DNA of 64,000 nt from Planctomycetota bacterium (lineage in GTDB: Bacteria; Planctomycetota; MHYJ01; JACQXL01; JACQZI01). The stretch spans positions 15,478 to 79,477 of the forward strand of contig JACQZI010000017.1 of assembly GCA_016207825.1 (NCBI GenBank). Direction: 5' to 3'. The position numbers were made by a program, and so were the translations under genes. The notes beneath the pieces are model-generated. The model was not told where the DNA came from. It did no database searches and was given only the letters and a program-made list of their open reading frames with translations. Of this stretch, positions 6,141 to 62,427 are shown piece after piece. Position 1 is the stretch's first letter, and every line of letters begins with the position of its first letter.

Positions 6141-6345
6141 CTCCACTCCTCCCTATGGACGGTTACTCCCTGCCGTATGAAGGGTCTATCCATACCGTAT
6201 AAACCATCCATCCCCGCCCAATAGAGGGTTACTCCATGCCGTACGAAACACTGCTCCCCGCCCTGCGGAATAACCATCCCCACCATACAGACCGCCCCTC
6301 CCTACCGTAGAAATACCCCATAGGGAGGGTGGGGATGGGGGGTAG
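6141..6345. repeat. 22-bp tandem repeat array (about 9 units; inverted copy of the array at 31962-32262)
   Basis: Periodic ggttactccctgccgtatgaag / ggtctatccataccgtataaac units, i.e. the reverse complement of ccgtacggtatgga. The terminal gtagggaggggcggtc matches the boundary of array 2. Confidence 0.8.
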
Positions 6346-23101: not shown

Positions 23102-23102
23102 A

Positions 23103-23690: not shown

Positions 23691-23691
23691 C

Positions 23692-24336
23692 TTACTTGGT
23701 TCCTGTAACGGGTAAACGATACAGCTCTATCTGGAAATCAGCTATCCAGTCTTCTTTCGCATCCGTTGCGTTAAGTTTAAACGTCAACTCTTCATTTATA
23801 CCGCCATTAAAAATATCTATTAATTCCGGGGTGTTTTTCAGCCTGCGGCGGAAATCTGTCATAATTATGATAGGATTTTTACTTTCGTCCGGGGCCACTG
23901 CCTGGCAATTCATTTTTATCATGGCTTCAATAGCTTTTTTTGTCCTGGTTCCACCGATTGCTTTATCGGCGCATTCAAAACTCGTCACCCAAACAGTCTG
24001 ATTTTCGTGCAACACATCAAAAAGCGTATCAATTGCATGCCACCATTTGAAAACGCGTGATTTTGTAATCTTTTCCGCAGCTTCTTTCCACTTCTTTAAG
24101 TCATTTTTTTTCTGCTCTAAAGCTGGAATCTGATTTAAAATTGCTTCTACTTTAGCCAATTCTACGTTCTTCTCTGTAATATCCTGTTTTACTTTCTTGG
24201 TATCCATCATGGTTTTGACATCCCAACCTAAAACGCCTAGACATACTACCACGGCTATAATAATACCAACGAACCGTGGTAATGGTGTTCGTTCTTTACG
24301 CCTTCGTTCAAACGGAATCAGGTTTATTTTTAACAT
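23692..24336 (-). CDS. pilN: type IV pilus assembly protein PilN-like
   Basis: Carries the KINLIPFERR N-terminal motif and a TM segment. Confidence 0.65.
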   Translation of the reverse strand: MLKINLIPFERRRKERTPLPRFVGIIIAVVVCLGVLGWDVKTMMDTKKVKQDITEKNVELAKVEAILNQIPALEQKKNDLKKWKEAAEKITKSRVFKWWHAIDTLFDVLHENQTVWVTSFECADKAIGGTRTKKAIEAMIKMNCQAVAPDESKNPIIIMTDFRRRLKNTPELIDIFNGGINEELTFKLNATDAKEDWIADFQIELYRLPVTGTK

Positions 24337-24340
24337 ATGC

Positions 24341-25405
24341 TTATTTCGGTTTTACGCGGGAAGCCAACCCTATTGCTATAGCCAAACGGGAAGCATGCCG
24401 CCCGATATCTTCTTTCGTAAGCTTTTCTTCATCAACCGCCAAATACTCCAATGGATTCCACCAAATCGGACGTTTCTCCAGGTTCTTTTCAAAAGCATCT
24501 TCCAACCCAACCAAACGGCCGCTTCCTCCGGAAAGATAAACCATGTCTATTGGTTTTTCAAACTGGTGCTCAAAGTAATCAAAAGATAAATGCACTTCGT
24601 GAATCAAATCATCCACCAAAGAAGCTGTTGCATCTTTAATATCTTCTATTTTATCAGCCGGGTTGCATTTAAGTTCGTCGGCCTGAGCAGACTGCAATCC
24701 GGTTCTTTTGCTTATTGCCTCCGTGAAATCATTCCCGGCAATGGTTATCTCACGTGTAAAACAGGAAACAGGACCTGACATAATATTCAACGACGACTTA
24801 ATGGTCCCGATATCAATCAAAGCTATTGTCTTATTATCCTCGACCTTACCTTGATTAGCCGCCAGCATCTGGTGAAGCTCGTAAGCGTTGCCAAGAGCAA
24901 AAGTATCTATATCAATAATATACGGCCATAGCCCAGCTCCTTCCAAAATAGCCAGGTGGTCTTCAATCAAAGTCCGTTTGGAAGCCACCAAAACCACCTT
25001 CATCTCTTTGTTTGCAGAATCCGCCGGCGGCGCTTCTGCGCTTGCCGGAGCAGGCAAATCCATGCGCTGGCAATCGAGCACAACTTCATTTGCTTCAAAA
25101 GGAATATACTTGCTGGCTTCATATTTTATGGCATTAGGCAATTCTTCATCAGACATTTCCGGCATTGTGATATAACGAACGATAACCGGCCTTCCGGAAA
25201 CTGCCGTTACCACTTTCTTTGAACTAAACCCCGCTTTTTGGAACAGGCTTTTCAGGAATTCCTTCAAATCGGCTCCGGCCGGTATATCTTCAACGGCATA
25301 ACCGGTAATGGTATAAACGCCTTCTCCGCTGACAAGCTCAACGGCCTTAACGCATTTACTCCCGATATCCAAGCCGATTAACGATTTTCCTTTTATTTTC
25401 GCCAT
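24341..25405 (-). CDS. pilM: type IV pilus assembly protein PilM (actin-like ATPase)
   Basis: LIGLDIGSKCVKAVEL actin-like fold motifs. Confidence 0.8.
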   Translation of the reverse strand: MAKIKGKSLIGLDIGSKCVKAVELVSGEGVYTITGYAVEDIPAGADLKEFLKSLFQKAGFSSKKVVTAVSGRPVIVRYITMPEMSDEELPNAIKYEASKYIPFEANEVVLDCQRMDLPAPASAEAPPADSANKEMKVVLVASKRTLIEDHLAILEGAGLWPYIIDIDTFALGNAYELHQMLAANQGKVEDNKTIALIDIGTIKSSLNIMSGPVSCFTREITIAGNDFTEAISKRTGLQSAQADELKCNPADKIEDIKDATASLVDDLIHEVHLSFDYFEHQFEKPIDMVYLSGGSGRLVGLEDAFEKNLEKRPIWWNPLEYLAVDEEKLTKEDIGRHASRLAIAIGLASRVKPK

Positions 25406-25418
25406 AAAATTTATATTT

Positions 25419-26192
25419 TCACGCTAACGTTAAAGACGTATGATGACGTTTGACTTTTTTAGCGAAATACTCATTCGCCTTATTATAGGAATCAATATCG
25501 CCTATGTCAAACCATTTACCCTTCATTTCACAACCAAAAAGAGCAGTTTGCTTATAAAGCCATTGGATATAATAACCGGGCGCATCCGGGTTATAACAGC
25601 AATCCAAATAATCGTTTATTAACCCTAACCTATCCCTGGAAAAAATATACAAACAAACAGCCGCTAATGTGCTTTTGGGAACAGGCGGCTTTTCTTCAAA
25701 TTCAACTATTTGTTTGGCTTTATTTAAAGTAGCAATACCATACTGGGAAAGAAGCTTTTCGTCAAGTTTTTTAAGATTAATTAACGCAATACAAGGCCCT
25801 TTCTTTTTATAAAAATCCACGAGCGGTTTCAGCGCGAAATCAAAAAGATTATCTCCTGCCACAATCAAAAGGTCATCGTTTATCTTCTCCTGTTCAATCA
25901 CAAAACGGATATCCTTGATTGCACCTAACCTGTCATCAGGAGAAGTCGTACCGTCGTTAACCACCGTAATTTTCTTTGGACCTTTAAATTCTTTTACCCA
26001 CCTCTCGTAATTCGGATAAAACCGCTGGTTAACCACGATAAACAATTCCTTAATCTCTTTGATTTTATTCAGGCGTTCAATCGTCCAGTTAATCACCGGT
26101 TTGCCGGCAATTGCCAGTAATGGCTTGGGCATATTTTGGGTTAGCGGGTATAATCTAACGCCGTATCCGGCTCCTAATATCAATGCCTTCAT
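25419..26192 (-). CDS. sugar-phosphate nucleotidyltransferase (NTP_transferase family)
   Basis: N-terminal motif MKALILGAGYGVRLYPLT...KPLL. Confidence 0.7.
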   Translation of the reverse strand: MKALILGAGYGVRLYPLTQNMPKPLLAIAGKPVINWTIERLNKIKEIKELFIVVNQRFYPNYERWVKEFKGPKKITVVNDGTTSPDDRLGAIKDIRFVIEQEKINDDLLIVAGDNLFDFALKPLVDFYKKKGPCIALINLKKLDEKLLSQYGIATLNKAKQIVEFEEKPPVPKSTLAAVCLYIFSRDRLGLINDYLDCCYNPDAPGYYIQWLYKQTALFGCEMKGKWFDIGDIDSYNKANEYFAKKVKRHHTSLTLA

Positions 26193-26325
26193 AATTTTCT
26201 TTATTATAAATTAATACGGCGTGCGGTCAAGAAAATATACATACATAACTATAAAGATAATACGCCTCCCCTCTTAAAACAACAAATTCCCCCGCTTTTC
26301 AGGCTTTTCAATCCCTTTATTATCC

Positions 26326-26353
26326 TTGACAAACTTATACGGGCTGATATATT
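26326..26353 (+). promoter_or_regulatory. putative sigma-70 promoter of argS (TTGACA-16-TATATT)
   Basis: -35 TTGACA at 26326-26331 and -10 TATATT at 26348-26353, ~20 nt before the start codon. Confidence 0.4.
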
Positions 26354-26372
26354 TAGTTCTCAAATAGCTTTT

Positions 26373-28097
26373 ATGAATATACTCAAGAATGAAATAACCA
26401 ACCTGCTTAAAGGGCATGACACCCTGTCAGGAATAAATATCGACTCTGTCCTGGAAAGGCCGCCGGACCGGGCTAAAGGCGATTATGCTTTAGCCTGCTT
26501 TTCACTGGCTAAATCGCTGAAACAAGTTCCTAATAAACTCGCCTCGGATATTGCCTTGCAATTAAAACCTTCGGGCCTCATTGCCTCCATCCAAGCAGAG
26601 GGCGGTTATATAAATTTCAGGGCGGACCCGGTAAAGCTGACGCCCCTTGTCATAAAACAAATTCTTACGGATAAAGAAAAATACGGGACATCCTCTATAG
26701 GCGAAGGAAAAACCATCGTCATAGATTACTCCTCGCCAAATATCGCCAAGCCCATGGGTATCGGCCACTTGCGCTCAACGGTCATCGGCAACTCTCTCTA
26801 TAAAATATTCTCCGAGCTTGGGTATAAATGCATCGGCATAAATTACCTGGGCGACTGGGGCACACAGTTCGGAATGCTTATTGCGGATTACAAGGAAAAC
26901 AAAAACCTCTATTCCGAATTTAATTCCGCGTTCCTGTCCGAACGCTATGTCGCTTTTAACGAACGGGCTAAAACCCAGCCGGAGCTCCTGGAAAAAGCGC
27001 GTGAGGAATTCAAGAAACTGGAATCAATGAATTCGGAAAACATGGAAATCTGGAATAAATTCCGCGCGCTCAGCATTAAGGAATTCCAGCGCATTTATAA
27101 ATTAATAGGGGTGAGCTTCGACGATTACTCCGGCGAATCAGCCGTAACCAATATCAACGAAGTGATTGCCCTGATAGAAAACAAGGGTTTGTGCGAAATC
27201 AGCGAAGGCGCTTTAATCGTCAACATGGAAAAACAAAACTTACAGCCGTGCCTCTTAAAGAAAAGCGACGGCGCCACCCTTTATGCCGCGCGAGACATCG
27301 CCGCCGCCATCGGCCGCCACGATAAATATAAATTCCATAAATTAATCTACGTGGTCGGCGCGGACCAGAAACTCCACTTCCGCCAGTTCTTTAAAGTCCT
27401 GGAACTGATGGGCTACGAATGGGCAAAGGAATGTGTCCACGTTGAGTTCGGGCTGGTCCGTTTATCCGGTGAAAAAATGTCCACCCGCCAGGGAAAGACC
27501 ATCATGCTGGAAGAAGTCCTGAACGAGGCGATTGAAAAATCCAAACAGGTGATTAAATCAAGGCCGCGGGAATTATCCGATAAAATCGCTTCCGCCGACC
27601 CCGATGAAATCGCCAAAGCGGTCGGCATCGGAGCGATTATCTTTAATGACCTTAAAAACAGACGCACGCGGGATGTGGATTTCAACTGGGAACACATTCT
27701 CTCATTTGACGGCGAAACCGGGCCATACCTGCAATATACCCATACAAGACTGGCAAGCCTCCTGGAAAAAGCCAAACACACCGGTTATAATACGGAAAGC
27801 GTTTCGCCGGCAAAAGCGGAACTCTTGACCGCGGATGAAGAAATATTACTTGCTAAACTCCTGAATGAATTCCCGGAAACCATAGAAAAAGCGGCGAAAA
27901 ATTTCGAGCCGTCTATTCTCAGTAATTATCTTTTGGAACTCTCCTCGGTTTTCAACCGCTTTTACCGTTTCCACAAAGTGATTAACGATTTGGATAAAGA
28001 TTTGAGTAATGCCAGAATATCTCTGGTCCGTTCCTTAAAATATGTTCTGGCAAAAGGGTTAAGTCTTCTCGGAATTAATCCTATCGAAAAAATGTAA
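26373..28097 (+). CDS. argS: arginine--tRNA ligase
   Basis: Class I HIGH motif (PMGIGHLRS) and a length and architecture typical of ArgS. Confidence 0.9.
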   Translation: MNILKNEITNLLKGHDTLSGINIDSVLERPPDRAKGDYALACFSLAKSLKQVPNKLASDIALQLKPSGLIASIQAEGGYINFRADPVKLTPLVIKQILTDKEKYGTSSIGEGKTIVIDYSSPNIAKPMGIGHLRSTVIGNSLYKIFSELGYKCIGINYLGDWGTQFGMLIADYKENKNLYSEFNSAFLSERYVAFNERAKTQPELLEKAREEFKKLESMNSENMEIWNKFRALSIKEFQRIYKLIGVSFDDYSGESAVTNINEVIALIENKGLCEISEGALIVNMEKQNLQPCLLKKSDGATLYAARDIAAAIGRHDKYKFHKLIYVVGADQKLHFRQFFKVLELMGYEWAKECVHVEFGLVRLSGEKMSTRQGKTIMLEEVLNEAIEKSKQVIKSRPRELSDKIASADPDEIAKAVGIGAIIFNDLKNRRTRDVDFNWEHILSFDGETGPYLQYTHTRLASLLEKAKHTGYNTESVSPAKAELLTADEEILLAKLLNEFPETIEKAAKNFEPSILSNYLLELSSVFNRFYRFHKVINDLDKDLSNARISLVRSLKYVLAKGLSLLGINPIEKM

Positions 28098-28124
28098 CTG
28101 CATCAAGAAAAGGAGTTCGACTAA

Positions 28125-29993
28125 ATGAGGAAATTATTATTAACCCTGCTGGGAACGGGATTGTCAATTATCTATTTGGGTTGCGGGTCAACGGCAAGCG
28201 AAGTAAAAAAACCGGTAACGGCAAAAGAACCGCCGCCGGCAACCAAGCAAGCCCAACCGTCGGAGCTCGTTAAAGAAAAACTCTCCTTGATAGAAGAACT
28301 CGGCTCTGACGACTGGGAAACCAGGGAAAAAGCACAGAAAGAACTGGAAAAAATGGGGGAAAAAGCGGAAGGCCAGCTTAAAGAAGCGGCCAAAAGCGCA
28401 AACCCAGAAATAAGGAGCCGGGCCACCCGTATCCTGAAACTTATTGAAACTCAAAAGCGGTGCAAACTTTCCGATGGCTTCTTAAGAGAATTCCCAAATA
28501 TTTATTATAATATCCTGGGGCTTTCCCCGGCGGGCAAATATGAACTCTTGGAAGAAGTTGTTTCCAAAGATAAAAACGGGCAGTTGAAATTCATCGGGAA
28601 AATCTCGCCCGCCGATATCGCCGTATTGACTGGCGAAATCTTGCGCGAGGACGGCAAAGGGCTAACCGATGACCAGAAAATAAAACTTATCCACACAAAC
28701 TTATCAAGCGGTTTCGGGCAGATAAACCAATCCGGCATACATTTGATAAAACTCCTGAAGGATCAGAACACGGAAATAAAACGCCTGGCCATCGAAACAG
28801 CAGGCTACATGGGTGTAAAAGAAGCAATTCCGGAAATCCGGGCTTTCCTAAAAGATCCTGCCGGGATACTGCGCGGCTATGCCGCCAAGACGCTCGGAAC
28901 GCTGGGCGATAAAGAAAGCATGAAAGACATCGCCGCGCTCTTAAACGACTCAGAAGCACTCCCTTACGAAGTAATCAACGCGCTGGTCATGCTCGGCGCT
29001 AAAGAATATGTAAATGAAATAAGACCTTTATTAAAAAGTGGTGATTCCTCTGCGCGGGTGGCCGCTGCCGTGGCCATGGGAAATTTTGGAGACAAGGAAT
29101 CGATTCCTCAGCTTATGGAACTGCTTGGTGATTCGTCGGATTCCAGCGTGCCTGCTATGGCGGCCGAGGCACTCGGCAGGCTCGGCCACAAGGAAGCCAT
29201 CCCGAAAATAATACCTCTCCTGGGCGCGGAGACATCTGATTGCCGAGAATATTCACTTAGGGCGCTGACCACCCTCAGAGCGTCCGATGCCGTCCCGGAA
29301 ATAATGAAAAGACTGAGTGATGAAGACCCCTATATCACCCAGCTTTCCATCCAATCCCTTAAAATTCTCGGTTCTAAAGAGCTTATCCCGAAAATGATTC
29401 AAGAGCTACAAAGCAACAGCGAGCCTTCCCATCAGGAACCCTACCTAAAAATCGACCTCTTAAACACGTCCGCCCACATGATGGCAAAGGAACTCTTTCC
29501 GGAAATAGCCAGTCTCTTGAAAGATTCAGACAAAACAACCGTCGCCGTAGCGGCTTTTTCGCTTATCAACGCAAATATCGGGATGACCGGCGAGGAAGTC
29601 CCGGAAATAACGGAACTTCTGAAAAAAGAAAATGTCTCCAGCGCCCAGCTTAACGAAATCTCCGAGCCGGTTTATGGATTCTTCCCGGAATACACCGCGG
29701 AAAAAACAGCCGGGTTACTATCGGATAAAAGAAAGGCTGTCCGGGCATCGGCCCTCTTAACATTGGGCAACTTAGTCCTAAAAGAATCCACGCCGGAAAT
29801 AATAAAAATGCTCGGTGACAAAGAACCACCCGTCCGCGCCACGGCAATTTCCGCCTTATGCAACCTCGAAGCGGTTAACGCCTCGGACTATATCAAAAAG
29901 CTTTATTCGGATAGCGACCCGGCAATCCGAGCCATGGCAGAACTCGCCATCCAATACTTAAAAACAATCGAGGAACCGCCGCCACAGGAATAA
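28125..29993 (+). CDS. HEAT-repeat (PBS lyase-like) lipoprotein
   Basis: Lipobox (LGCGS) and many ~30-aa repeats with AA.ALG..GDKEAIP.L..LL.D. Confidence 0.7.
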   Translation: MRKLLLTLLGTGLSIIYLGCGSTASEVKKPVTAKEPPPATKQAQPSELVKEKLSLIEELGSDDWETREKAQKELEKMGEKAEGQLKEAAKSANPEIRSRATRILKLIETQKRCKLSDGFLREFPNIYYNILGLSPAGKYELLEEVVSKDKNGQLKFIGKISPADIAVLTGEILREDGKGLTDDQKIKLIHTNLSSGFGQINQSGIHLIKLLKDQNTEIKRLAIETAGYMGVKEAIPEIRAFLKDPAGILRGYAAKTLGTLGDKESMKDIAALLNDSEALPYEVINALVMLGAKEYVNEIRPLLKSGDSSARVAAAVAMGNFGDKESIPQLMELLGDSSDSSVPAMAAEALGRLGHKEAIPKIIPLLGAETSDCREYSLRALTTLRASDAVPEIMKRLSDEDPYITQLSIQSLKILGSKELIPKMIQELQSNSEPSHQEPYLKIDLLNTSAHMMAKELFPEIASLLKDSDKTTVAVAAFSLINANIGMTGEEVPEITELLKKENVSSAQLNEISEPVYGFFPEYTAEKTAGLLSDKRKAVRASALLTLGNLVLKESTPEIIKMLGDKEPPVRATAISALCNLEAVNASDYIKKLYSDSDPAIRAMAELAIQYLKTIEEPPPQE

Positions 29994-30097
29994 AACGAAA
30001 ATAATATAAAACCCTGAAGTTTTCTTGACCTTAAAAAGGTATTCTGTTATAAACCCTTTTATCAAACAGTGTTAACTATTTAACAAGGAGATAAAAA

Positions 30098-31159
30098 ATG
30101 GCGTCATTTGAAGACCTGCTGGTCCAATTGGTAAAAAGAGGCGGTTCTGATTTGCATATCACGAAAGATTCTCCACCGCGCATCAGGGTGGACGGCAAGT
30201 TGGCTCCGCTTGAAGGCGACAAACTGACTGCCGCAGACTCCCAAAAATTAATCTACGGTCTTCTGGACCCATCCCAGGTTGCCCGTTTTGAAAAGAATAA
30301 AGAGCTCGATTTCTCTTTCGGTATCGAAGGCTTAGGCAGGTTCAGGACGAACGTTTTCATGCAGCGCGGCGCGGTCGGCGCAGTCCTGCGTATCATCCCG
30401 ACCAAAATAAAAACATTCGAGGATTTGGGGCTTTCCCGGCAGGTCTGCGAATCGCTGTGCAACCTGCCCAAAGGCTTGATTCTGGTCACCGGCGCGACCG
30501 GCAGCGGCAAATCCACCACCCTCGCCGCGATGATTGATTTCATCAACACCACGGATTACGGGCATATAATCACCGTGGAAGACCCGATAGAATTCGTCCA
30601 CTCGAACAAAAACTGCCTGGTCAACCAGCGCGAAGTCGGCTCGGATACCAACGAATTCAAAAACGCCTTGAGAACGGTCTTAAGGCAGGACCCGGACGTG
30701 GTGCTAATCGGAGAAATGCGCGATACGGAAACGACCGAAGCAGCATTGACCATTTCCGAAACCGGCCACCTGACATTCGGGACACTGCATACCAGCGATT
30801 GCGTCCAGACCATGAACCGTATCATAGATATCTTCCCGGCTTACCAACAATCGCAGATACGGACTCAATTATCCTTTACATTATCAGCCGTATTCTGCCA
30901 GCAGTTGTTACCGCGTGCAACCGGCAAAGGGCGCGTGCTGGCGGCGGAAATCATGCTTGCCAACTCTGCCATCCGCTCGCTCATCCGGGATAATAAGGTA
31001 CACCAAATTTACTCGGTCATCCAGACCGCCGGGAAGTCCGGAATGAAGACGATGAACCAGTCGTTATACGAACTCTATAAATCAGGCACGATAAAATATG
31101 ATACGGCATTGGAATACTCAAGCGACCCGGACGATCTGAAACGCCTGATGCAGAAATAA
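30098..31159 (+). CDS. pilT: twitching motility ATPase PilT
   Basis: Walker A GATGSGKST and the PilT-specific length and motifs. Confidence 0.85.
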   Translation: MASFEDLLVQLVKRGGSDLHITKDSPPRIRVDGKLAPLEGDKLTAADSQKLIYGLLDPSQVARFEKNKELDFSFGIEGLGRFRTNVFMQRGAVGAVLRIIPTKIKTFEDLGLSRQVCESLCNLPKGLILVTGATGSGKSTTLAAMIDFINTTDYGHIITVEDPIEFVHSNKNCLVNQREVGSDTNEFKNALRTVLRQDPDVVLIGEMRDTETTEAALTISETGHLTFGTLHTSDCVQTMNRIIDIFPAYQQSQIRTQLSFTLSAVFCQQLLPRATGKGRVLAAEIMLANSAIRSLIRDNKVHQIYSVIQTAGKSGMKTMNQSLYELYKSGTIKYDTALEYSSDPDDLKRLMQK

Positions 31160-31306: not shown

Positions 31307-31870
31307 TCAGACGACCTCTGTTCCCGGCATACTTAAACGATGAATCTCGTAACTAGTCCAATGTTTGTATTCTTCAGAATTTGATTGTACCTTCTCGAAT
31401 TCCGCGGGCGCAACCACCACCAACAATTCCCAATGAACCGGCTCATAGGGCGAGGCGGTATTCAAACGCACCTTCTTGTATTCCACTTCCACAAATTCCT
31501 CTTTCCAGTTGCGGCCTGAACCGGAATTGGCCTTCCATTCGACATAAAGGGCTGTCAAGCCCAATTTGCCGGAAAAAGCCTCGTCAAATATATAATACTT
31601 GTGCCCGCTCATATCAGATTTCGGCCTGGATTCTTGCAGGTATTTCTTCAGGACCTCGGCGCGGAAAAAATAAGGCCTTGCCCCGGTATGCCCGAAGGTG
31701 TAATATTTGTAAGTGACATAACGCTCCACATCCGCACGGTGGAACCGCCAGGCGCGGCCTGCTTTGAATGCCGGTAATTTCCCTGCCTTGGCTAAGCGGT
31801 AAACTGTGTGGTTATTTACCCGCAGGTATTTTGCCACTTCGTCAAGGGTCAATATTTCAGGAAGTTCCAT
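31307..31870 (-). CDS. excisionase-type HTH DNA-binding protein fused to an uncharacterised C-terminal domain
   Basis: N-terminus LTLDEVAKYLRVNNHTVYRLAKAGKLPAFKAGRAWRF (HTH_17/excisionase-like). Its start codon is ~90 bp from the 22-bp tandem array. Confidence 0.6.
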   Translation of the reverse strand: MELPEILTLDEVAKYLRVNNHTVYRLAKAGKLPAFKAGRAWRFHRADVERYVTYKYYTFGHTGARPYFFRAEVLKKYLQESRPKSDMSGHKYYIFDEAFSGKLGLTALYVEWKANSGSGRNWKEEFVEVEYKKVRLNTASPYEPVHWELLVVVAPAEFEKVQSNSEEYKHWTSYEIHRLSMPGTEVV

Positions 31871-31961
31871 AATAATATTATACCAAACCGGACACTATTT
31901 AGCAATATTTTACTCTATTTAGCAATATTGTACATTAACCCCTACCCTACCTACCCACCCT

Positions 31962-32262
31962 CTGTACGGTAGGGAAGGGCGTTCTGTACGGTGGGGAGAG
32001 GTACTCCGTACGGTATGGAAGCATACTCTGTACGGTCAGGAGCGGTATTCCGTACGGTATGGAGACACGCTCTATACGGTCAGGAGTGGTATTCCGTACG
32101 GTATGGAGGCACACTCTGTACGGTCGGGAGTGGTATTCCGTACGGTATGGAGGCATACTCTGTACGGTCGGTATGAGTATTCTGTACGGTCAGGAGAATG
32201 CACCTGATGGGTATGGAGAAGTATTCGCTTGGGTATCCGGGCACCTTCGCTATGGAATACTG
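31962..32262. repeat. 22-bp (44-bp higher-order) tandem repeat array, about 13 units
   Basis: Alternating ccgtacggtatggaggcatact and ctgtacggtcaggagtggtatt units that decay at the distal end. The gene-proximal boundary is cctacccaccct. Confidence 0.9.
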
Positions 32263-32284
32263 GGATTCTCCCTTGGGGAGGATA

Positions 32285-32460
32285 GTTTTTTTAACCTGAA
32301 CCGACCCTAGTATAGATTAATCCCACCTCTTGTATAGATTACTACCCGTCCTAGTATAGATTACAGCACCCTCTTATAAGGATTATATCCCCCTCTCGTA
32401 TAGATTATATCTACTACCCGCATAGATTGTACTATCCTATTACAGAATATACTCCACCTC
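32285..32460. repeat. degenerate ~23-bp tandem repeat with GTATAGATTA core (about 7 units)
   Basis: tagtatagatta / cgtatagatta / catagattgta units, immediately distal to array 2. Confidence 0.6.
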
Positions 32461-32486: not shown

Positions 32487-33289
32487 TCATACTTTAGAAG
32501 AAGTTCTTTCCATGCTCCGTTCTGTACACCCTTGTAATGGACACGTCGGACAGTAAAACCAGGATTTATAAACCTCACCTAACCGCCCGGTGAGTTTAGC
32601 CTCACGCATTATTTTAATGGCGTTTTTTAGTTTCTGGATAGCCTTATTTTGCACCTTAACTTTAAAGGTTTTGCCCGGATATTGGACCAATCCATATTTA
32701 GGCAATTTATTATAGGTGGCTTCCACTAAAAGCGCCTAGGCAATTAATTGCATCCGAACCGAACTATAAAGTTTTTTAGGCGGTGCGGCGGATTTAATTT
32801 CAACCGGTATGTAATTTTCGTCTTGTTTGATAACATAATCAGGATAGCCTCTGATAAAGTAACGAGGAGCCGAAAGCATTTTAGCATCTTTTACACTAAT
32901 TCCTTTATAAACGATTTCCCCTGCGGGCATATTTGTTTCATTTTGCAAGGCTTTTGCTGAATGCCTTAAAACATACCATATGATAAAAAATAAAAGCGCA
33001 ATAAATAAGAACCAATAAATCATCTTGTTTATTTAAGCATTAAGAGGATGATAAAAGCTAATAAAGACGAGAGTCCTATAATTAAGAATGCAACCGACCA
33101 CCGGCTATAGCTCTGTTCTTTTTTAACGTTATCCTGCTGATGGGCATGGAAGACTTCGCCTTTATGTAATAATTCAAGGTCTGCGGAAATGACACCGGTT
33201 CTCCTGAGCCACCAGGCATGAGGGCAATAAAAGAATTCATTGATTTCTGATGCGCTAACCCATATTTCTTCGCGTTTATCCGGTTCCAT
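32487..33289 (-). pseudogene. Cas4-like (DUF83) PD-(D/E)xK nuclease, disrupted (one frameshift in a hydrophobic segment and one in-frame TAG)
   Basis: Three collinear fragments. 33289-33029 carries WVSASEINEFFYCPHAWWL (Cas4 N-terminal Cys motif). 33023-32736 carries GYPDYV...PVEIKS (motifs I and II) and ends ...MQLIA-TAG, where the QhxxY Tyr is expected. 32726-32487 is in the same frame and has the C-terminal CPTCPLQGC cluster. Confidence 0.5.
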
Positions 33290-33331
33290 GATTTTACGAT
33301 TTATAGTTCGCCCTGTCGTCCCCAGCTTTAG

Positions 33332-33687
33332 TTATAACCTCATTAATGTTTTGATATGTTTTTGCAATAGAACGAAATGATCTGATTCAAGCATGCCTAT
33401 TTTAGTTGTCAACTGCCTTCTATCGATTGCCATTATTTGAAACGGCAATAATACCGACTTCATTTTAAGGCCATTTACAGGTGAGGGCTCAACAGGGAAA
33501 GCAAATGGAAAACGAAGAGCCCCACTTGTTTAGTAAAAGGAATAATTACAATAGTCGGGAGAGTGGAATAATCATCTTCATCCTGAACTATAACAACCGG
33601 CCTGGGTCCGCTTTGCACATGCGTGTGTTGGTCTTTTGGAGAGGGTAAATTCGCGTAGACAATATCACCATTTTTAAATATCGCCAT
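33332..33687 (-). pseudogene. mazF: MazF/PemK-family endoribonuclease toxin gene with internal frameshift
   Basis: The N-terminal 70 aa (GDIVYANLP...GPRPVVIVQ...IIPFTKQ) match PemK/MazF. The C-terminal third (FPVEPS...VLLPFQIMAIDRRQL...) continues in another frame down to TAA at 33332. Confidence 0.55.
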
Positions 33688-33697
33688 TTGTTATTTC

Positions 33698-33970
33698 TCA
33701 TCTGGCTTCTTCATAAAGGCCTAATCCTTCTATTCCAGCCTGTTCTAACCCATGAAATTCTCTTTCGATTTCTTCGTTAATAAAAGGAGGATTTTCACTT
33801 ATATTATCCGAGCCTGAATAAACGTAGTTGCTAAGGGGGATTCCAATAAGGTTCTTATCTTTCGTCACTTCAACCACATAAAAGACAATAGAAGGCTGTC
33901 CCCACTGGTCAGACCTTTCTCTCAATGCCGAACTGTTAATTTCTTTGGTTATCATATTAATTTCCTCCAT
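33698..33970 (-). CDS. hypothetical 90-aa protein immediately upstream of mazF (possible non-canonical antitoxin)
   Basis: 10-nt gap to mazF and a 14-nt overlap with the upstream 238-aa gene. No family recognised. Confidence 0.35.
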   Translation of the reverse strand: MEEINMITKEINSSALRERSDQWGQPSIVFYVVEVTKDKNLIGIPLSNYVYSGSDNISENPPFINEEIEREFHGLEQAGIEGLGLYEEAR

Positions 33971-36572: not shown

Positions 36573-38381
36573 TTACTTCGGCGACCAGATGACTTGCTCC
36601 CCGATATCGCCTCCGTTGGTTGCCTGGTATATCTTGCCGCTTTCCACTTCTATCACGTAAATATTATAAGTCTTCCTGAAGGCAATCCATTTGCCGTCCG
36701 GACTCCAAGAGGGAGATAATTCCTCATCCTTGCTATCGGTCAGATTCTTAAATTCGCTCCCATCCGCTTTCATAATACAGATATCATTGGTAAAATGTCC
36801 GTGGGGCGAACACTGGACAATCACCAGGGAGCCGTCCGGAGACCAGATGAGCGGCTTTCGGTCCAAAATCTTTACATCCAATTGGGTTTTGTTGGTGCCT
36901 TCCGAATCCATGCTAAAAACCTTTACCCCTTCGCCTATCTTACTGCTGAGAAAGAGTATGCTGTCGTCTTTCGGAGAGCAAACAGGAAAATCGTCCCAGC
37001 CATCACTGTCAGTGAGCTGTTTTTCATCGCCGCCGTCTATGTCTATGCTAAAAATCCGGAAACTATTATCCCGTGAACTGCGGTAAACAAGGCGGTCACT
37101 GCCGGAAGACCAGCTGATATTTTCCGCGCCGCCTTTGCCTGAAGTCAGCTGTTTAAGGCCGGAGCCATCGGGTCGGACAACCCATATATCCGGTGGATTA
37201 TAGCTTCTGGAATTTTCAGTTTTGCTTTCCACGGAAGAAGAACTGAAGGCAATCCATCTGCCGTCCGGCGACCAGACCGGTGCGCGGTCTTCGGCATCGT
37301 TTTTGGTCAGGCGGGACAGACCACGCCCGTCTATGTTTACGGTGTAGAGTTCTGTAGCCTCGCTTATGGGATGGGAATCAAAGACGAGCTTCATGCCGTC
37401 CGGCGACCAGGCGACGAAATCCTTGAAGCCGCCGGTCTTGGTGACCGGCTTGCACTTTGAGCCGTCCGGATTCATTACGTAAACCTCATACTGTCCCTCG
37501 CGGTTGGAAATGAAAGCAATCTTTCCCGGGAGCCCGGCGAGTTCGGCAACGGGCTTTTGCCTGGACTTCGCGCCGACATTGAAGCTATGCTTTTTTATTT
37601 TCCAAGCGCCCCCTTCTCTGACAAAATCCACAGAGCCTTCTCCTTCCTGGTCTCCCATCTTGCCTTCAAAGGAAAGTGTTCCTTCATCTCCGGAGATAGC
37701 CACATCCGTCACGGTCGTTTCGGTCGGCATAAAACCAATGGCCATGGACATAAGCTCCTGCGGGTCGCCCAGTTGCTCCATTTCCTTGATGGCATCCGCG
37801 GAAAGATATTTCTTTAGCTCTTTAAAGTCGCCGGATTTCATGGCTTTGCGGAAATTATCATAAAGTATTTTTAACGCGTCTTCATCGCTTGAGGGCTTTG
37901 ATTCCGGTTTTGTATCTTTTTTATCCGGCTGGGGAACGGGCGGCTGGACGGGTTTGGGAGGGGCCGGAGGAGGGGTAAAATCGAACTCTTCATCAAACTT
38001 CTGCCCGGAAAACTTCCACTCACCGTCTTCCAGAACCATATAGACCGTGCCGGAAACGCTGCGTCCATTAAAGGTGCCATCCACCATCAGGCTCGCCTTT
38101 GACTGGAAGACAGAAATACCGAAGATATCAACTTGAGAGGGCGTCTTCTTTTTAAGCTCCAGAAGTTTCTGTTTTGAATCGTCTGTTTCAAGCTCGTGGC
38201 GCAGTCCGGCGGTAACACATTTCTTAACCGTTTCCAGGTTTTCTTCGGCAACGGCAGTAATGTAATCGGTATACGCTTTTTTTGCCTCGCTCTTGTCGTC
38301 ACCGACGGCTTTATAGATAAAAGCACCGTTTAAAGAAATAACCGCCAAAGCGATAACCAGTGTTCTAAAAAAAGATTTCAT
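36573..38381 (-). CDS. TolB-like beta-propeller repeat protein
   Basis: Signal peptide and many WSPDG/WSPDGK repeats. Confidence 0.7.
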   Translation of the reverse strand: MKSFFRTLVIALAVISLNGAFIYKAVGDDKSEAKKAYTDYITAVAEENLETVKKCVTAGLRHELETDDSKQKLLELKKKTPSQVDIFGISVFQSKASLMVDGTFNGRSVSGTVYMVLEDGEWKFSGQKFDEEFDFTPPPAPPKPVQPPVPQPDKKDTKPESKPSSDEDALKILYDNFRKAMKSGDFKELKKYLSADAIKEMEQLGDPQELMSMAIGFMPTETTVTDVAISGDEGTLSFEGKMGDQEGEGSVDFVREGGAWKIKKHSFNVGAKSRQKPVAELAGLPGKIAFISNREGQYEVYVMNPDGSKCKPVTKTGGFKDFVAWSPDGMKLVFDSHPISEATELYTVNIDGRGLSRLTKNDAEDRAPVWSPDGRWIAFSSSSVESKTENSRSYNPPDIWVVRPDGSGLKQLTSGKGGAENISWSSGSDRLVYRSSRDNSFRIFSIDIDGGDEKQLTDSDGWDDFPVCSPKDDSILFLSSKIGEGVKVFSMDSEGTNKTQLDVKILDRKPLIWSPDGSLVIVQCSPHGHFTNDICIMKADGSEFKNLTDSKDEELSPSWSPDGKWIAFRKTYNIYVIEVESGKIYQATNGGDIGEQVIWSPK

Positions 38382-38554: not shown

Positions 38555-39013
38555 ATGGTTAATATTTCAAAGATAACCAAGAAGCGCCTGGGCGAGCTTT
38601 TGGTCTCCGAAGGCTTAGTCACCAACGACCAGGTTACCGAGGCGTTAACCGAGCAGAAAAAAGTCGGCTCGCTCCTGGGCGAGACGTTGATTAAGCTGGG
38701 TTACGTAACCGAATCCGATATCGCCGCGGCAATAGCGGCGCAATTCGGGCTGCCTTATATTGATACCTCCCGTTACACCATAGAAAAAGAGATTTTCGAA
38801 CTGATTCCGGTGGATTTCATGAAGAAAAACGAGCTGATTCCGCTGGACAGAATCGGCAATATCATTACCATTGCCGTATGCGGCCCTTTGAGCGAGAAAG
38901 TCTTTGAGGAACTGGAAAAGCTTATGGGATGCGAAGCATATCTTTTTGTTTCAACTTCGTCACAAGTTCATAAAATAATAGAAGATTTTACATCAGGCGA
39001 GAAAAAGAAATAG
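38555..39013 (+). CDS. standalone type II secretion system protein E N-terminal domain (GspE-N/PilB-N) protein
   Basis: LGELLVSEGLVTNDQVTEALTEQ...LGYVTESDIA... is typical of the T2SSE_N domain. Confidence 0.65.
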   Translation: MVNISKITKKRLGELLVSEGLVTNDQVTEALTEQKKVGSLLGETLIKLGYVTESDIAAAIAAQFGLPYIDTSRYTIEKEIFELIPVDFMKKNELIPLDRIGNIITIAVCGPLSEKVFEELEKLMGCEAYLFVSTSSQVHKIIEDFTSGEKKK

Positions 39014-39034
39014 CCCCGACACCCTTGTCGGGAC

Positions 39035-40762
39035 TTGCAAGAGACTAATTATATGGCGAGTAATTTCAGCGGCTGGTTAAAGATGTTTCTAGTTAAGAAG
39101 AACCTGCTTACCGAGGAGCAAAAAAAAACGGCTGACGATATAACATCCAAGGATAAAAGATTATTAAGCGAAGTCCTGATAACCAATAAGTTTATTGAAG
39201 AAGAAACCTTATTAGCCTTGATTGCCAGGGAAGCGCGCATCCCACCCATAAACGTGGAAAAAGTCTTGCCGGATGAAGCGGCCCTTAAGATGATTCTGGA
39301 AAGCCAGGCGCATTCTTACGGGGTTCTTCCCGTTTCCAAAATAGGCGATATCCTTACCATTGCGGTAAGTAATCCTTTCGACATACTTAAAATAGACGAC
39401 CTGAAAATAATCACCGGATGCGATATCAGGTATGTAGTGGCACTGGATTTCCGGATAGCAGAGCGAATCCGCCCGTTTTATAACCCGGAAGAACTGGCCA
39501 TGGAAAAGATGCTGGAGGAAAACGAAGAGACCGACGAGGTGGAGCTTACCAAGCACCAGATGGAAGACGTGGACGTGGCATCGTTGACTGCGGCGGGAGA
39601 AGACGCACCGATTGTGAAATTCGTCAACCTGATTATTTATAAAGCACTCGAGGAAGGGGCAAGCGATATTCATATCGAGCCCTATGAAAACATGGTGGCG
39701 GTCCGTTATCGCAAAGACGGCGTGCTTCATGAAGCAATGCAGCCGCCCAAGAAGATTTTCAACGCCATCATTTCACGCGTAAAAGTAATGACTTCGCTCG
39801 ATATCGCCGAACGCAGGGTTCCCCAGGACGGCAAATTCCAGATAAAGTATGAGAACCGTCAGATAGATTTCCGCGTTTCCACCCTGCCGACCATTTACGG
39901 GGAAAAGGTCGTTATGCGCGTCCTGGATTCTTCCAGCATTAATTTAGGACTGGATGTTTTAGGGTTTGAACCGCAGGCAATGAATGCATTTAAAACGGCA
40001 ATTATGGCTCCTTATGGAATGATTCTGGTAACAGGCCCGACCGGAAGCGGAAAATCAACCACTTTGTATTCAGCGTTAAAAGCAATCATGTCGAATGAAG
40101 ATAATATCATGACCGTGGAAGACCCGGTGGAATACCAGCTGGAAGGCGTCGGGCAGGTACCGATAAACCAAAAAAGGGGAATGACCTTTGCTTTGGCATT
40201 AAGGTCTCTTTTACGCCAGGACCCGGATAAGATAATGGTCGGAGAAATCCGCGACGGAGAAACGGCCGATATCGCGGTAAAAGCGGCGATGACCGGGCAC
40301 CTGGTTTTAAGCACGCTCCATACGAACGATGCGGCTTCGGCTATCACACGCCTGGCTGATATGGGAGTTGACCCATTCCTGATTGCCTCATCAACTATCC
40401 TTCTTTCAGCGCAAAGGCTTGCCAGAAAACTATGCGAAAGATGCAAACAGCCCTTTGACCCCCTTCCGCCTCCGGAAAGATTAATCAATATCGGTTTTAA
40501 AGAAGCGGAGTGTAAAAACATTATTTATAAACCGGTCGGCTGCGCACATTGCCGTGACGGCTACAAAGGACGTTTTGCCTTCCTGGAAGCGCTTGAAATT
40601 GATGATGAAGTACGCAGGATGATTATTAAAAGCAAGTCTGTTTTTGAGATAAAGAAATATGCCGTAGATAAAGGAATGATTACCCTGCGCCGTTGCGGGG
40701 TGCTTAATATCCTAAAAGGAAAGACCTCTATTGAAGAAGTGCTGAGAATGACCGAGGCATAA
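39035..40762 (+). CDS. pilB: type IV pilus assembly ATPase PilB / GspE family
   Basis: Walker A GPTGSGKSTT, and a C-terminal CxxC...CxxC zinc motif (CERCKQ...CAHCRDG). Confidence 0.85.
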   Translation: MQETNYMASNFSGWLKMFLVKKNLLTEEQKKTADDITSKDKRLLSEVLITNKFIEEETLLALIAREARIPPINVEKVLPDEAALKMILESQAHSYGVLPVSKIGDILTIAVSNPFDILKIDDLKIITGCDIRYVVALDFRIAERIRPFYNPEELAMEKMLEENEETDEVELTKHQMEDVDVASLTAAGEDAPIVKFVNLIIYKALEEGASDIHIEPYENMVAVRYRKDGVLHEAMQPPKKIFNAIISRVKVMTSLDIAERRVPQDGKFQIKYENRQIDFRVSTLPTIYGEKVVMRVLDSSSINLGLDVLGFEPQAMNAFKTAIMAPYGMILVTGPTGSGKSTTLYSALKAIMSNEDNIMTVEDPVEYQLEGVGQVPINQKRGMTFALALRSLLRQDPDKIMVGEIRDGETADIAVKAAMTGHLVLSTLHTNDAASAITRLADMGVDPFLIASSTILLSAQRLARKLCERCKQPFDPLPPPERLINIGFKEAECKNIIYKPVGCAHCRDGYKGRFAFLEALEIDDEVRRMIIKSKSVFEIKKYAVDKGMITLRRCGVLNILKGKTSIEEVLRMTEA

Positions 40763-59046: not shown

Positions 59047-59928
59047 TTATAGCGCCTGTCTTTTACGGGCATAGACGGTGATAAAATCCCACCTTTTTAA
59101 CAGCTTTATCGCCAAGCCATGCACAATCGGGCGCGCCCAATTCAGGTATTTTATTGCCTTGAGCAACGGATTCGGGCGTGTTTTGCCCTCCGCGCCCTTA
59201 TTTAATAATCCCGTCCCGCCTTCTCTGACAGACTTAATGATTCCGAATCCGTTTTCGGAAAGCAGTTTGGTTAAGGTTTCTTTGGAGAAGTGATATAGAT
59301 GAATCTTGGGAACTAAATTCACCCAGCGTTCCTTCATCCGGCGGGCATTGCCGGAATTGATATCCGGAACGGTTATCACCAAAAGCCCGTCCGCTTTTAA
59401 AAGGCGCGCCGCTTTTTGGATAGCCTGCTTGGGCAAAGGCAGATGCTCCAGGACATGATACATCGCGATAACATCAAAAAAGCTATCAGGGAAAGAAGCA
59501 TCTTCAAGATTGCCGGTAACGACGTTTAATCCCAATTTATTCCGTGCATAATCAGATGCCCAGGGAGATATTTCCACCCCATAAGGCTCCCAGCCGTATT
59601 CCCGGGCGACATCGAGGAATCCGCCTGTGGCACAGCCGATTTCCAGTATTTTCCCGGAACGCTTGAATTTCATTATGCCTCTTAACCGCCTTTGGGCATC
59701 GGCGTAGAAAAGCTCTTTGTTTTGGATGTAATCGAAGCTGGGAACATCCGGCGAGGACTGGTTCCTGAAATAATCCTCCGAATAAAGACGGGCGCGCTCG
59801 TCATCAGACAGGCGCGGATTGGTGTAGACCAGGCCGCATTTAAGGCAACGGACGACCTTTAAATCGGATATGGTATAGACCGCTTCCGCCTTATCCGCTC
59901 CACAGAGCGCACAGGAAACATATTCCAT
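59047..59928 (-). CDS. class I SAM-dependent methyltransferase with N-terminal zinc ribbon
   Basis: C.LC....C..C followed by a methyltransferase motif I (LEIGCATGG). Confidence 0.7.
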   Translation of the reverse strand: MEYVSCALCGADKAEAVYTISDLKVVRCLKCGLVYTNPRLSDDERARLYSEDYFRNQSSPDVPSFDYIQNKELFYADAQRRLRGIMKFKRSGKILEIGCATGGFLDVAREYGWEPYGVEISPWASDYARNKLGLNVVTGNLEDASFPDSFFDVIAMYHVLEHLPLPKQAIQKAARLLKADGLLVITVPDINSGNARRMKERWVNLVPKIHLYHFSKETLTKLLSENGFGIIKSVREGGTGLLNKGAEGKTRPNPLLKAIKYLNWARPIVHGLAIKLLKRWDFITVYARKRQAL

Positions 59929-60147
59929 ATATGATTTTATCGGGTTATCCCATAAGGAGCGTTAGGGATACTTGGCATAGAAAAATATCCCGCCTTGCGA
60001 CCAGAGGCTATAGTCCACGAAGTGGGAAGTCCCCGTAGGTGGCGGGGACGGCTAAAACGCATATATTCGTTTGCATCTCAATTAAATGAGGTTTCAAAGG
60101 CAGGGGGGTGGTGCTACTCCCCCCTCAACTTAGGGCTAACTACTCAT

Positions 60148-60409
60148 AAATACGGTGAGACCCCATCTCAAATGCGGAGGGACTCCATGGCAAATGCGGA
60201 GGGACTCCATCTTAAATGCGGTGATGCCCCATCTCAGATGCGGTGAGACCCCATCTCAAATGCAGAGAGACTCCATCTTAAATGCGGAGAGACCCCATCC
60301 CAAATGCGGAGGGACTCCATTCCAAATCCAGAGAGACCCCATCTTAAATGCGGAGAGGCTCCATGGCAAATGCGGTGGGACTCCATCTTAGATGCGGAGG
60401 GACTCCATG
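60148..60409. repeat. 22-bp tandem repeat array (about 12 units, consensus aaatgcggagggactccatctt)
   Basis: Head-to-tail units with no spacers. The sequence family differs from arrays 1 and 2 but the period is identical. Confidence 0.9.
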
Positions 60410-60564: not shown

Positions 60565-62427
60565 TTAATTAAAACTTTTGTTTATCTCTACAAATAGAGG
60601 GATAAAACTCTCGGAAGCCTTAACAGAGCCATTTAACAACGAATTAGCATAATGAATTGCGACACCATTTTTATTAAAGTCTTTAGATAATTTCAGTTTA
60701 AAGTACTGCATTAGTTTTCTTCCTAATGTCCAATTGCTATCGATGCTTAATGAGCAATCATTAAATTTATCAGGTGTTATAGGAGTAAACCAATCAAATC
60801 CCTGATAAAAATCATTTACTGATTTTATATAGATGTCTATGCCGACAAGGTCTTCTATTGATTCGTTTTGATTAGAAGAACCCGTAATTTGATTAATTTC
60901 AATAGTTGGAGTGTGGCATTTTTCAGCTACTTTAATCATATCTTTATTTCCATCATCGCTATCACATAGAACAATTGACTTTTTGTTCTGACTACTAGCC
61001 GTTTTCAGGAATGGTTCTAAAGCCGCACCATCGTTACATGGAATAATGCTTATTTTAGTTAAATCAAGATGCGTTTTCCCATTAGACTTAAAATAATCCG
61101 AAATATTAGCTAAAATTACCTGATCTGATATGCCCTCAACAAAAATATTCTGTTCTCCCAGAAAACCTAAATCGCCAAAGGAAACCCCAATAGACACTTT
61201 TAGAGGATCCCATATATTAAGAAATTTATTTTCATCCCTTGGCGCATAGGGCTTATTATCAATCTTAGTCGCTTTGGTTTTAGGATTTCTGGTAAACAAT
61301 CTAATCCGTTGCGGGAAATTCCAATCTATCATAAAAGGAGAATGGGTAGAATATGCAACTTGATGTTTCTGTGACAATTCATTTAGCATCTTTACAACAA
61401 TGCGTTGTGCGTTAGGATGCAAATTACAGGCTGGCTCATCAAATAAAACAATGGTCTGATTTTCTAATTTTTGGATAAACAAATATTCTATAACAAACGT
61501 TAAAAACCAATTGAGACCTGTCCCGTAATAGCGCAGTTTATTCTCGTCTCGTATCTGTGCTGTTAGAAGAAAACTATTTCTCTTGTAACTGGATTCTTTA
61601 CTGTGACTATTCCCCGCTAGCCTAATCTCGAAAGTAAGATCTGCAGGATCCCTCCACCACTTTTGCAAAACACCTGTTATTTTTTCAGATAATTCCTTTA
61701 ATTTTTGTTCTATTTCCTCTTGAGTAAGATTTAATGGCCTTAGCCGTGGTGAATTATGCTTCGTAGTTTCAGCCCACGGCGCATCTACATTGTGGTTTGC
61801 TCTAATGTTAGCTTTTAAATCTACAATTGAAAGCAGTAATTTTTCCGTAGTAAAAGGCATAAATTCACTAGGTTGATCAGATAGAGGGGTTTCTGTAATG
61901 CATGGACCTGTTTCATAAAATTGTGCTTCAAATAGTTCATTTAGTGCAACTTTTTCAGAAAGATTAATATATCTTATCTTTGGCAAAACAGATTGTTCAA
62001 AGTTTCTCATATCTTCTGTAATAGCCGGAAACTCTGTATTATCTTCATAGATATTGATATTTTCTGTATCGGCTAATAAAGAATATGATTGGTTTTTAGG
62101 TATATCCGAACGATGCTGATAACAAATTGTAATTAGTTTTGGTTTTTTATTCCCTAATAGTTGAGTGAACTTATCGTTTTTGATATCCTTATCTTCAACT
62201 ACCCACAATGAATTAAATCTTATACTGTTTGGATCTGCATTTTTTAACTGGCTTATATCCCAACCGGCCATGCCACCGTTTTTTATGTATTGGTCAAATA
62301 ATCGGTGAAGTATGCTCGTTTTTCCTGTATCATTCTTGCCAATAAGAACTGTTACATAAGGATCAAAAGATAAAGACTGATTTATAAAATGTCTAAATTG
62401 ATGTAGTTTTATTTCTTTTACTTTCAT
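60565..62427 (-). CDS. OLD-family ATP-dependent endonuclease (ABC-type ATPase + Toprim), standalone
   Basis: Walker A GKNDTGKTSIL, Walker B/D-loop VLFDEPACNLHP, H-loop STHSP, C-terminal Toprim (IFVEGISDQVIL ... VLCDSDDGN). The gene is AT-rich. Confidence 0.75.
   Translation of the reverse strand: MKVKEIKLHQFRHFINQSLSFDPYVTVLIGKNDTGKTSILHRLFDQYIKNGGMAGWDISQLKNADPNSIRFNSLWVVEDKDIKNDKFTQLLGNKKPKLITICYQHRSDIPKNQSYSLLADTENINIYEDNTEFPAITEDMRNFEQSVLPKIRYINLSEKVALNELFEAQFYETGPCITETPLSDQPSEFMPFTTEKLLLSIVDLKANIRANHNVDAPWAETTKHNSPRLRPLNLTQEEIEQKLKELSEKITGVLQKWWRDPADLTFEIRLAGNSHSKESSYKRNSFLLTAQIRDENKLRYYGTGLNWFLTFVIEYLFIQKLENQTIVLFDEPACNLHPNAQRIVVKMLNELSQKHQVAYSTHSPFMIDWNFPQRIRLFTRNPKTKATKIDNKPYAPRDENKFLNIWDPLKVSIGVSFGDLGFLGEQNIFVEGISDQVILANISDYFKSNGKTHLDLTKISIIPCNDGAALEPFLKTASSQNKKSIVLCDSDDGNKDMIKVAEKCHTPTIEINQITGSSNQNESIEDLVGIDIYIKSVNDFYQGFDWFTPITPDKFNDCSLSIDSNWTLGRKLMQYFKLKLSKDFNKNGVAIHYANSLLNGSVKASESFIPLFVEINKSFN

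Follow-up and report, generated by a model that had tools for sequence, protein, structure and literature searches.

The HTH gene, its product and the repeats upstream of it

The 64-kb stretch of DNA analysed here (the window) carries on its reverse strand a gene for a 187-aa helix-turn-helix (HTH) protein, preceded by a promoter match, two 15-bp direct repeats, a G-rich boundary and two arrays of 22-bp units, named A and B (Table 1). The start codon at 31870 given in the initial annotation agrees with the ORF found here, 31307..31870(-). The flanks are housekeeping genes, including argS, a HEAT-repeat protein and the type IV pilus genes pilM/O/T/B. The module lies amid these pilus genes (pilM, pilO, pilT, pilB-like; 21389-31159 and 38555-40762), and in a related locus, L090 (related loci carry L numbers), a pilM-like gene is located ~5 kb downstream, which may be coincidence.

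Table 1. Positions of the gene, its promoter region and the arrays in the window, and make-up of the arrays at distantly related loci
Feature	Position	Strand	Description
Orphan array D	6145..6342	+	~8 decayed 22-bp units (6145-6320), CCGTAC core as in A; G-rich cap GGGAGGGTGGGGATGGGGGG 6323-6342
187-aa protein gene	31307..31870	-	ATG 31870; HTH_17 residues 7-52 = nt 31715-31852; orphan C-terminal domain residues 54-187 = nt 31310-31711
Sigma-70-like promoter match	31877..31905	-	TTGCTA-17 nt-(TG)TATAAT; 10/12 consensus matches, extended -10
Two perfect 15-bp direct repeats, operator candidate	31895-31909 and 31915-31929	.	Period 20 bp; proximal copy contains -35 hexamer
G-rich boundary, candidate nucleation site	31932..31960	-	Gene strand GGGTGGGTAGGTAGGGTAGGGGTTAATGT; G4-capable; adjoins array A
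Array A	31961..32290	.	11 well-kept 22-bp units (31961-32202) and ~4 decayed in-register units; ~15 total
Terminator-like hairpin and T7 run	32265..32292	+	Between arrays A and B, strand opposite HTH gene
Array B	32310..32450	.	~6 units of 22 bp; + strand core GTATAGATTA; inverted relative to array A
Orphan array C	60100..60407	-	12 units of 22 bp (60144-60407); G/C-rich hairpin-like boundary 60100-60127
L087 array			12 units of 22 bp (locus at ~25-30% identity)
L088 array			7 units of 66 bp; mis-called as 156-aa ORF (locus at ~25-30% identity)
L090 array			18 units of 22 bp (locus at ~25-30% identity)
L091 array			~20 units, 66-bp super-unit (locus at ~25-30% identity)
L094 array			7 units of 11 bp (locus at ~25-30% identity)
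L096 array			20 units of 22 bp (locus at ~25-30% identity)

The 187-aa protein matches HTH_17 (PF12728) at residues 7-52 with 67 bits against a cut-off of 27 (E=1.8e-18), as well as the excisionase-family domain TIGR01764 with 58.6 bits against a cut-off of 28.8, both scores lying above the curated cut-offs for this sequence family. Its N-terminal domain has the predicted winged-helix fold of the Xis/MerR type and belongs with the Xis/BldC-type winged helices, whose members multimerise on direct repeats. The excisionase/MerR-like HTH of the initial annotation therefore stands as an HTH_17 and Xis-type fold match, but the word excisionase can be kept as a fold label only; excisionase function was rejected, with integrase, att-like context and tRNA all missing nearby, and no recombinase families were found among the window neighbours or at any related locus. 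A second, unrelated HTH_17 protein of 307 aa is encoded at 14687-15610 (-), with its HTH at residues 58-102 (15422-15583) and without an upstream array.

BldC is the sole significant PDB sequence match for the 187-aa protein. The arginine of the BldC TVTRW motif, probably the base-contacting Arg30 (PMC5859096), aligns with R25, which is invariant across the two-domain family described below. Among the close homologues the HTH is nearly invariant, the variable positions being concentrated at residues 19-21 and 39-40, and the HTH residues of the window protein and of its homologue in L005 are similar (NNH/RA vs NYH/RA). Three known families were tried and rejected. For the BldC family (NF033787) the score was 32.7 bits against a cut-off of 77, and a protein of 187 aa with a second domain stands against ~70-aa single-domain members; for the MADS protein MAD1 (NF047737 / PADLOC mad1) it was 66.5 bits against a cut-off of 80, and the adjacent MADS cluster is missing. 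A classical MerR regulator does not fit the alpha/beta C-terminal domain in place of a coiled coil, the 17-nt promoter spacer, or repeats that are direct and not palindromic.

Residues 54-187 gave zero family matches, which bears out the earlier description of the C-terminal domain as one of no recognised family. The structure prediction that had been suggested for it was run and gave a confident alpha/beta model (b-a-b-b-a-b-b-a-a), for which no structural relatives were found. Neither a coiled coil nor an amphipathic helix was found in the 187-aa protein.

The -10 element of the promoter match ends 7 nt ahead of the ATG and a Shine-Dalgarno sequence is missing, so that the mRNA of the HTH gene is probably leaderless. 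The 15-mer CTATTTAGCAATATT has exactly two copies in the window, and no further copies were found in the 64 kb at <=2 mismatches; of the perfect 15-bp direct repeat reported earlier with 20-bp spacing, the repeat and its 20-bp period are confirmed, but its coordinates were off by one and are corrected to 31895-31929. The proximal copy appears to lie at an operator position, since the best promoter match has its -35 hexamer within this copy. In L005, whose protein is ~60% identical, both copies are nearly unchanged, and ATTGCTAAATAG occurs twice in the window and in L005 with 33/34 bases identical, the arrays of these two loci being unrelated. Promoter-proximal direct repeats of 9-15 bp at 10/20/30-bp spacing are present in 9/13 family loci.

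Between the repeats and array A, the previously noted G-rich boundary is present at 31932-31960 on the gene strand. Canonical G4 motifs number only two in the window, and one of them is the C-rich + strand stretch at 31939-31960, G-rich on the HTH-gene strand. The figure of about 13 tandem 22-bp units proposed for array A was a fair one, given 11 well-kept units and ~4 decayed units in the same register. The conserved units have a 44-bp dimer organisation with 87% matches and, on the gene strand, a core ACCGTAC(A/G)GA that includes the CCGTACGG palindrome; the GC content of array A is 53%. The best matrix match between arrays A and B is in opposite orientation (z=4.0). The lags 22/44/66 are the only multi-hit periodicity in the window, with 4 regions against 0-1 for the other lags from 7 to 79.

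A CRISPR-like array was rejected as an identity for these repeats, given that a 22-bp period with 10-bp cores does not fit CRISPR. Beside array B there is a decayed island (32487-33970) with Cas4-like fragments, a truncated PemK/MazF-like ORF (33475..33687) and small unknown ORFs. The Cas4-like fragments are split by stops (32736..33023 and 33029..33289; TIGR00372, E=1e-6 and 5e-5), and neither a CRISPR array nor a cas operon was seen at this island. The hairpin between arrays A and B (32265-32292, + strand) has no obvious + strand gene or promoter feeding it. Array B, the orphan arrays C and D, and the standing of the boundary as the best conserved non-coding element were absent from the initial annotation.

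Linkage of the gene and the array in Planctomycetota

Only ~10 close relatives of the 187-aa protein, with 54-64% identity, were found among 5.8 billion clustered proteins, where the window's own copy bears the label of a Planctomycetes MAG, and a profile search extended these to a wider two-domain family of proteins of 150-210 aa. When the C-terminal domain alone was searched, the named sources were all Planctomycetota or Brocadiia MAG proteins, and the two-domain family has been seen so far only in Planctomycetota. All the close relatives with fetched upstream DNA, namely L001, L002, L004, L005, L008, L009 (weak) and L010, have a 22-bp-period array directly upstream of the gene. An upstream phased array was present in 14/14 informative independent family loci (the window, the seven just named, and L087, L088, L090, L091, L094 and L096), down to ~25% protein identity, evidence that comes mostly from short metagenomic contigs; L095, with only 27 bp of upstream sequence, was left out of this count. 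As controls, 76 loci with other HTH_17 genes from the same metagenome scan (348,742 bp) yielded no phased arrays, and their top lag-22 identity was 0.46 vs 0.55-0.99 in the family loci.

The array period is always about a multiple of the helical turn. Most loci have 22 bp, L094 has 11 bp, the window, L008 and L010 have 44 bp, and L088 and L091 have 66 bp. Even where the units are just 55-65% alike the register is retained, which points to a role of the array on duplex DNA that would depend on the face of the helix. Taken together, the linkage supports the HTH gene and its upstream array as a putative conserved functional unit. Public gene calls have hypothetical ORFs on two arrays of this kind (L088 9369-9839, 156 aa; L003 3743-4021, 92 aa), both very likely spurious. 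In L002 the stretch from the array to the gene is unusually long (~470 bp) and hairpin-rich, and the array and HTH module lies between the genes of two unknown proteins that are paralogues (499 and 518 aa; 68% identical; 2126-3625 and 5702-7258).

Of the non-coding elements in the gene-array module, the boundary is conserved best, with the consensus GGGnGGGGGTAGGGTAGGGGTCAATGT across the family loci (~28 bp, GGGTAGGGGTYAATGT). The exact 13-mer GGTAGGGTAGGGG, also present in the window, was found among the 94 fetched loci only in the family loci L005, L010 and the distant L090. Array A has the opposite orientation to array B and to its relatives at other loci, and the boundary of L087 is C-rich on the gene strand; the polarity of array and boundary is therefore not fixed.

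The phasing and the hairpin bear on the possibility that array A gives rise to a repeat-containing non-coding RNA, transcribed from the + strand divergently from the HTH gene and ending at 32265-32292. The terminator-like site is found right after array A on the + strand, and the + strand RNA of the array folds better than shuffles (z=-4.3; - strand z=-2.6), but a signal of this kind is to be expected with palindromic CCGTACGG cores, and neither a + strand promoter above the scan threshold nor, at gathering thresholds over the whole window, any Rfam match was found. Loci inspected unsystematically (e.g. L002, L005) have terminators of the upstream gene and not a hairpin of this kind, and the 11-bp-based periods and changing array orientation agree with duplex DNA and not with RNA. 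We therefore consider a non-coding RNA very unlikely.

The surroundings of the gene were compared among the family loci for partners and for signs of mobility. No integrase, partition ATPase, Rep protein or tRNA was found near the gene in any family locus, no ParA/ParM/TubZ gene is adjacent to the HTH gene, no DnaA-box-like sites occur within 1 kb of any array, and an all-against-all comparison of neighbour proteins found no conserved partner gene. Gene order is conserved in patches within subclades (PD40 propeller close to the gene in 3 loci; VanZ in L001/L004; GH57 in L090/L094), which points to a gene probably inherited vertically rather than mobile. The PD40-propeller-like gene neighbouring the HTH gene in L005 contains a 132-bp tandem repeat in 5 copies (2698-3364), and its homologues lie close to the HTH gene both in the window (36573..38381) and in L004.

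In R6K and pSC101-type replicons, 22-bp iterons lie upstream of an autoregulated rep gene. The 22-bp repeats upstream of the gene reproduce this classic layout, and together with the excisionase-like fold and the decayed Cas4-like and MazF-like genes adjoining array B, they could be read as the iteron-type replication origin and initiator of an integrated mobile element, or as its excisionase with arm-type sites. This is extremely unlikely in our view, given that HTH_17 was the only family found and no Rep family matched, that no array has DnaA boxes near it, that integrase, tRNA and partition ATPase are missing in every locus, and that the flanks are housekeeping genes with partial subclade synteny (VanZ L001/L004; GH57 L090/L094). 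Membership of the iteron replicons was rejected on the missing Rep family, the lack of a DnaA-box-like site within 1 kb and the 53% GC of array A.

Unit sequences and arrays away from the gene

The array units were compared as 22-column frequency matrices, at all shifts and on both strands. Pairwise, the median z was 0.5, and only a few pairs proved to be related (L002-L004, L004-L091, and arrays A and B of the window). No universal motif was found in the units of 15 arrays when 5-mers and gapped 3+2-mers were set against column-shuffled controls: the best 5-mers were present in 3-5 of the 15, at about the column-shuffled level, and AGAGG and ATATA, in 5/15, were barely above the null. It appears doubtful that the HTH reads the 22-bp units in a simple sequence-specific manner, because the arrays have no common motif though the HTH of the close homologues is almost invariant.

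Two further arrays, C and D, are located in the window away from the HTH gene. Array D shares a 33-bp stretch, 91% identical, with the end of array A, and appears to be a paralogue of array A plus its boundary. It sits in an ORF-poor intergenic region (5986-7090), 1.1 kb without a convincing ORF, the next gene starting at 7094. Array C, whose units contain a GGAG-N3-CTCC inverted repeat, faces a SAM-methyltransferase ORF (59047..59928(-)) at the head of a polysaccharide-synthesis cluster and adjoins an OLD/GajA-like ATPase gene (60565..62427 (-)). The mad2-like match of the methyltransferase ORF is limited to the generic methyltransferase core. Two 2.3-kb short-read contigs have one end that runs a few bases into array C. 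By tblastn, no copy or pseudogene of the family gene was found beside C or D, the only matches being 31307-31870 and the unrelated HTH_17 at 15422-15583. The array is not only an autoregulatory device, since arrays C and D lie away from the HTH gene.

The missing motif and the orphan arrays lead to a different explanation, in which the arrays would be fast-evolving satellite-like or selfish repeats, or would be read by a different abundant protein, and would be kept at the promoter for structural reasons, for example phased bendability, insulation or G4-linked slippage, while the HTH would bind only the proximal repeats or the boundary. Besides the lack of a motif next to an invariant HTH and the existence of arrays C and D, the 44/66-bp higher-order units and the paralogy of A and D are signs of unequal crossing-over or gene conversion, and it is the proximal repeats rather than the arrays that track the HTH from the window to L005. 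However, linkage in 14/14 loci over deep divergence, against no array in the controls, would hardly be expected unless the arrays were functionally tied to the gene, and decayed arrays that keep strict 11n phasing and are free of indels speak for selection on the helical face. On this evidence, we judge satellite-like repeats or another reader to be unlikely.

Several arrays within one genome would also be expected of a centromere-like or chromosome-anchoring module, in which the protein would coat the array and its C-terminal domain would tether the site, along with arrays C and D, to a cellular structure or partner, in the manner of RacA/ram, RocS, pSK1 Par and StbA/stbS, autoregulation being secondary. 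In favour of this, the cassette is self-contained, consisting of an array with one gene, and is retained in diverse chromosomal surroundings; the HTH resembles the DNA-binding domains of pSK1 Par and RacA; RacA, RocS and Par are MerR-type winged-helix tethers (PMC11500499); and StbA has the same layout (bioRxiv 10.1101/2022.04.29.490116). On the other hand, coiled coil, amphipathic helix and partner NTPase are all missing, the C-terminal domain has no known relative, the 20-kb loci L087 and L088 each show a single array, and there is no indication of an origin- or terminus-proximal position, which makes chromosome anchoring rather unlikely.

Proposed mechanism and comparison with known systems

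Here it is proposed that the conserved elements are nucleation sites for the 187-aa protein, which would then oligomerise along the phased array and autoregulate its own promoter, with the array as a phase-selected platform or sink. We give this model an even chance of being right; it is built on the strict helical phasing, the winged-helix class of the protein and the invariable linkage of gene and array. The protein would nucleate beside its own promoter, on the G-rich boundary and/or the proximal direct repeats, and its cooperative oligomerisation along the phased array (11 bp times n, usually 22 bp) would form a one-faced or gently superhelical nucleoprotein complex, which would feed back on the promoter, probably a leaderless one. 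As a cooperative platform or sink, the array would be under selection for its phasing and not for its sequence, and the protein would find other targets in the paralogous orphan arrays of the same genome.

The module anatomy, the gene-array linkage, the conservation of the period, boundary and proximal repeats, and the predicted fold of both domains are established here. From these we infer DNA binding by the 187-aa protein, its binding polarity, autoregulation and a physiological output. The autoregulated protein with a binding array, as first suggested, agrees with the linkage in 14/14 loci and with a 15-mer at the operator position, but is at odds with units that have no common motif and with the orphan arrays C and D. 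The main objection to the nucleation and oligomerisation model is that a shared unit motif is missing alongside an invariant HTH, which keeps alive both the tethering reading and those that invoke another reader, a structural role or selfish repeats; further objections are that the polarity of array and boundary varies, that arrays C and D are far from the gene and that another protein could read the arrays.

A broader and quite unlikely extension is that of a hitherto unrecognised chromatin- or centromere-like system of this Planctomycetota lineage, in which hypervariable 11n-bp satellite arrays, each with a conserved G-rich, G4-capable cap for nucleation, would be coated by the winged-helix protein, the C-terminal domain would bridge or tether, one array would in every case guard the leaderless promoter of the protein, and further arrays such as C and D would mark other chromosomal sites, recognition being by phasing, DNA shape and nucleation and not by unit sequence. 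A full-text literature search for such arrays or such a module in Planctomycetota found nothing relevant, and the module of array, boundary and HTH gene appears to be undescribed. It offers a clean natural test of how winged-helix proteins may build higher-order complexes from phasing in place of sequence, and accounts for two practical nuisances, namely arrays mis-called as ORFs and several short-read contigs that end in or beside an array.

Among the known systems, the protein can be set first against the excisionases or RDFs (lambda-type, Tn916 Xis, Pukovnik Xis, RdfS), from which it differs in that integrase, att and mobile element are missing, in its extra C-terminal domain and in its apparently vertical inheritance. 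In comparison with the RacA/RocS tethers, the module is without a coiled coil and its sites are tandem and phased, whereas RacA uses dispersed 14-bp inverted repeats, a symmetric dimer, and a coiled coil with DivIVA.

BldC of Streptomyces, the founder of the BldC family of MerR-like winged-helix regulators, is a 68-residue single domain that acts at many promoters with 2-4 repeats and the motif AATTxxxxC. It binds direct repeats head to tail with one protomer per helical turn, a 22-bp site holding two protomers. By analogy, the fold of the 187-aa protein and the 10/20/22-bp repeat spacing suggest head-to-tail multimerisation on direct repeats; unlike BldC, it has an extra 135-aa orphan domain and faces 7-21 units of 22 bp without a shared motif.

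The layout is that of the plasmid centromere-binding autoregulators StbA/stbS (R388), ParR/parC, TubR/tubC and pSK1 Par, in all of which the promoter of the binder's own gene contains direct repeats arrayed in helical phase, as found here in 14/14 loci. The StbA promoter contains ten direct repeats with an 11-bp period, with extra repeats at other promoters, and StbA consists of an HTH N-domain and a non-conserved C-domain needed for positioning (bioRxiv 10.1101/2022.04.29.490116). The module shares with these proteins a DNA-binding N-domain with a variable C-domain, as well as extra repeat sets elsewhere, and the HTH described here has the DNA-binding domain of pSK1 Par among its structural neighbours. 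The plasmid proteins form superhelical or filamentous protein-DNA complexes, which are only proposed for the 187-aa protein. In contrast to the plasmid cassettes, the module is chromosomal, has housekeeping flanks and no NTPase partner, and occurs in Planctomycetota; it also differs in its two-turn period, hypervariable units, conserved G-rich boundary and unrelated C-terminal fold. If the protein coats the arrays, the module would be a chromosomal single-gene counterpart of these cassettes in a phylum with unusual cell biology, with the uncommon traits of a two-turn period kept over deep divergence with complete unit turnover, a conserved G-rich cap and a C-terminal domain without relatives. 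Overall, the module resembles a combination of BldC-type multimerisation with the plasmid centromere/autoregulator layout of StbA/stbS, ParR/parC, TubR/tubC and pSK1 Par.
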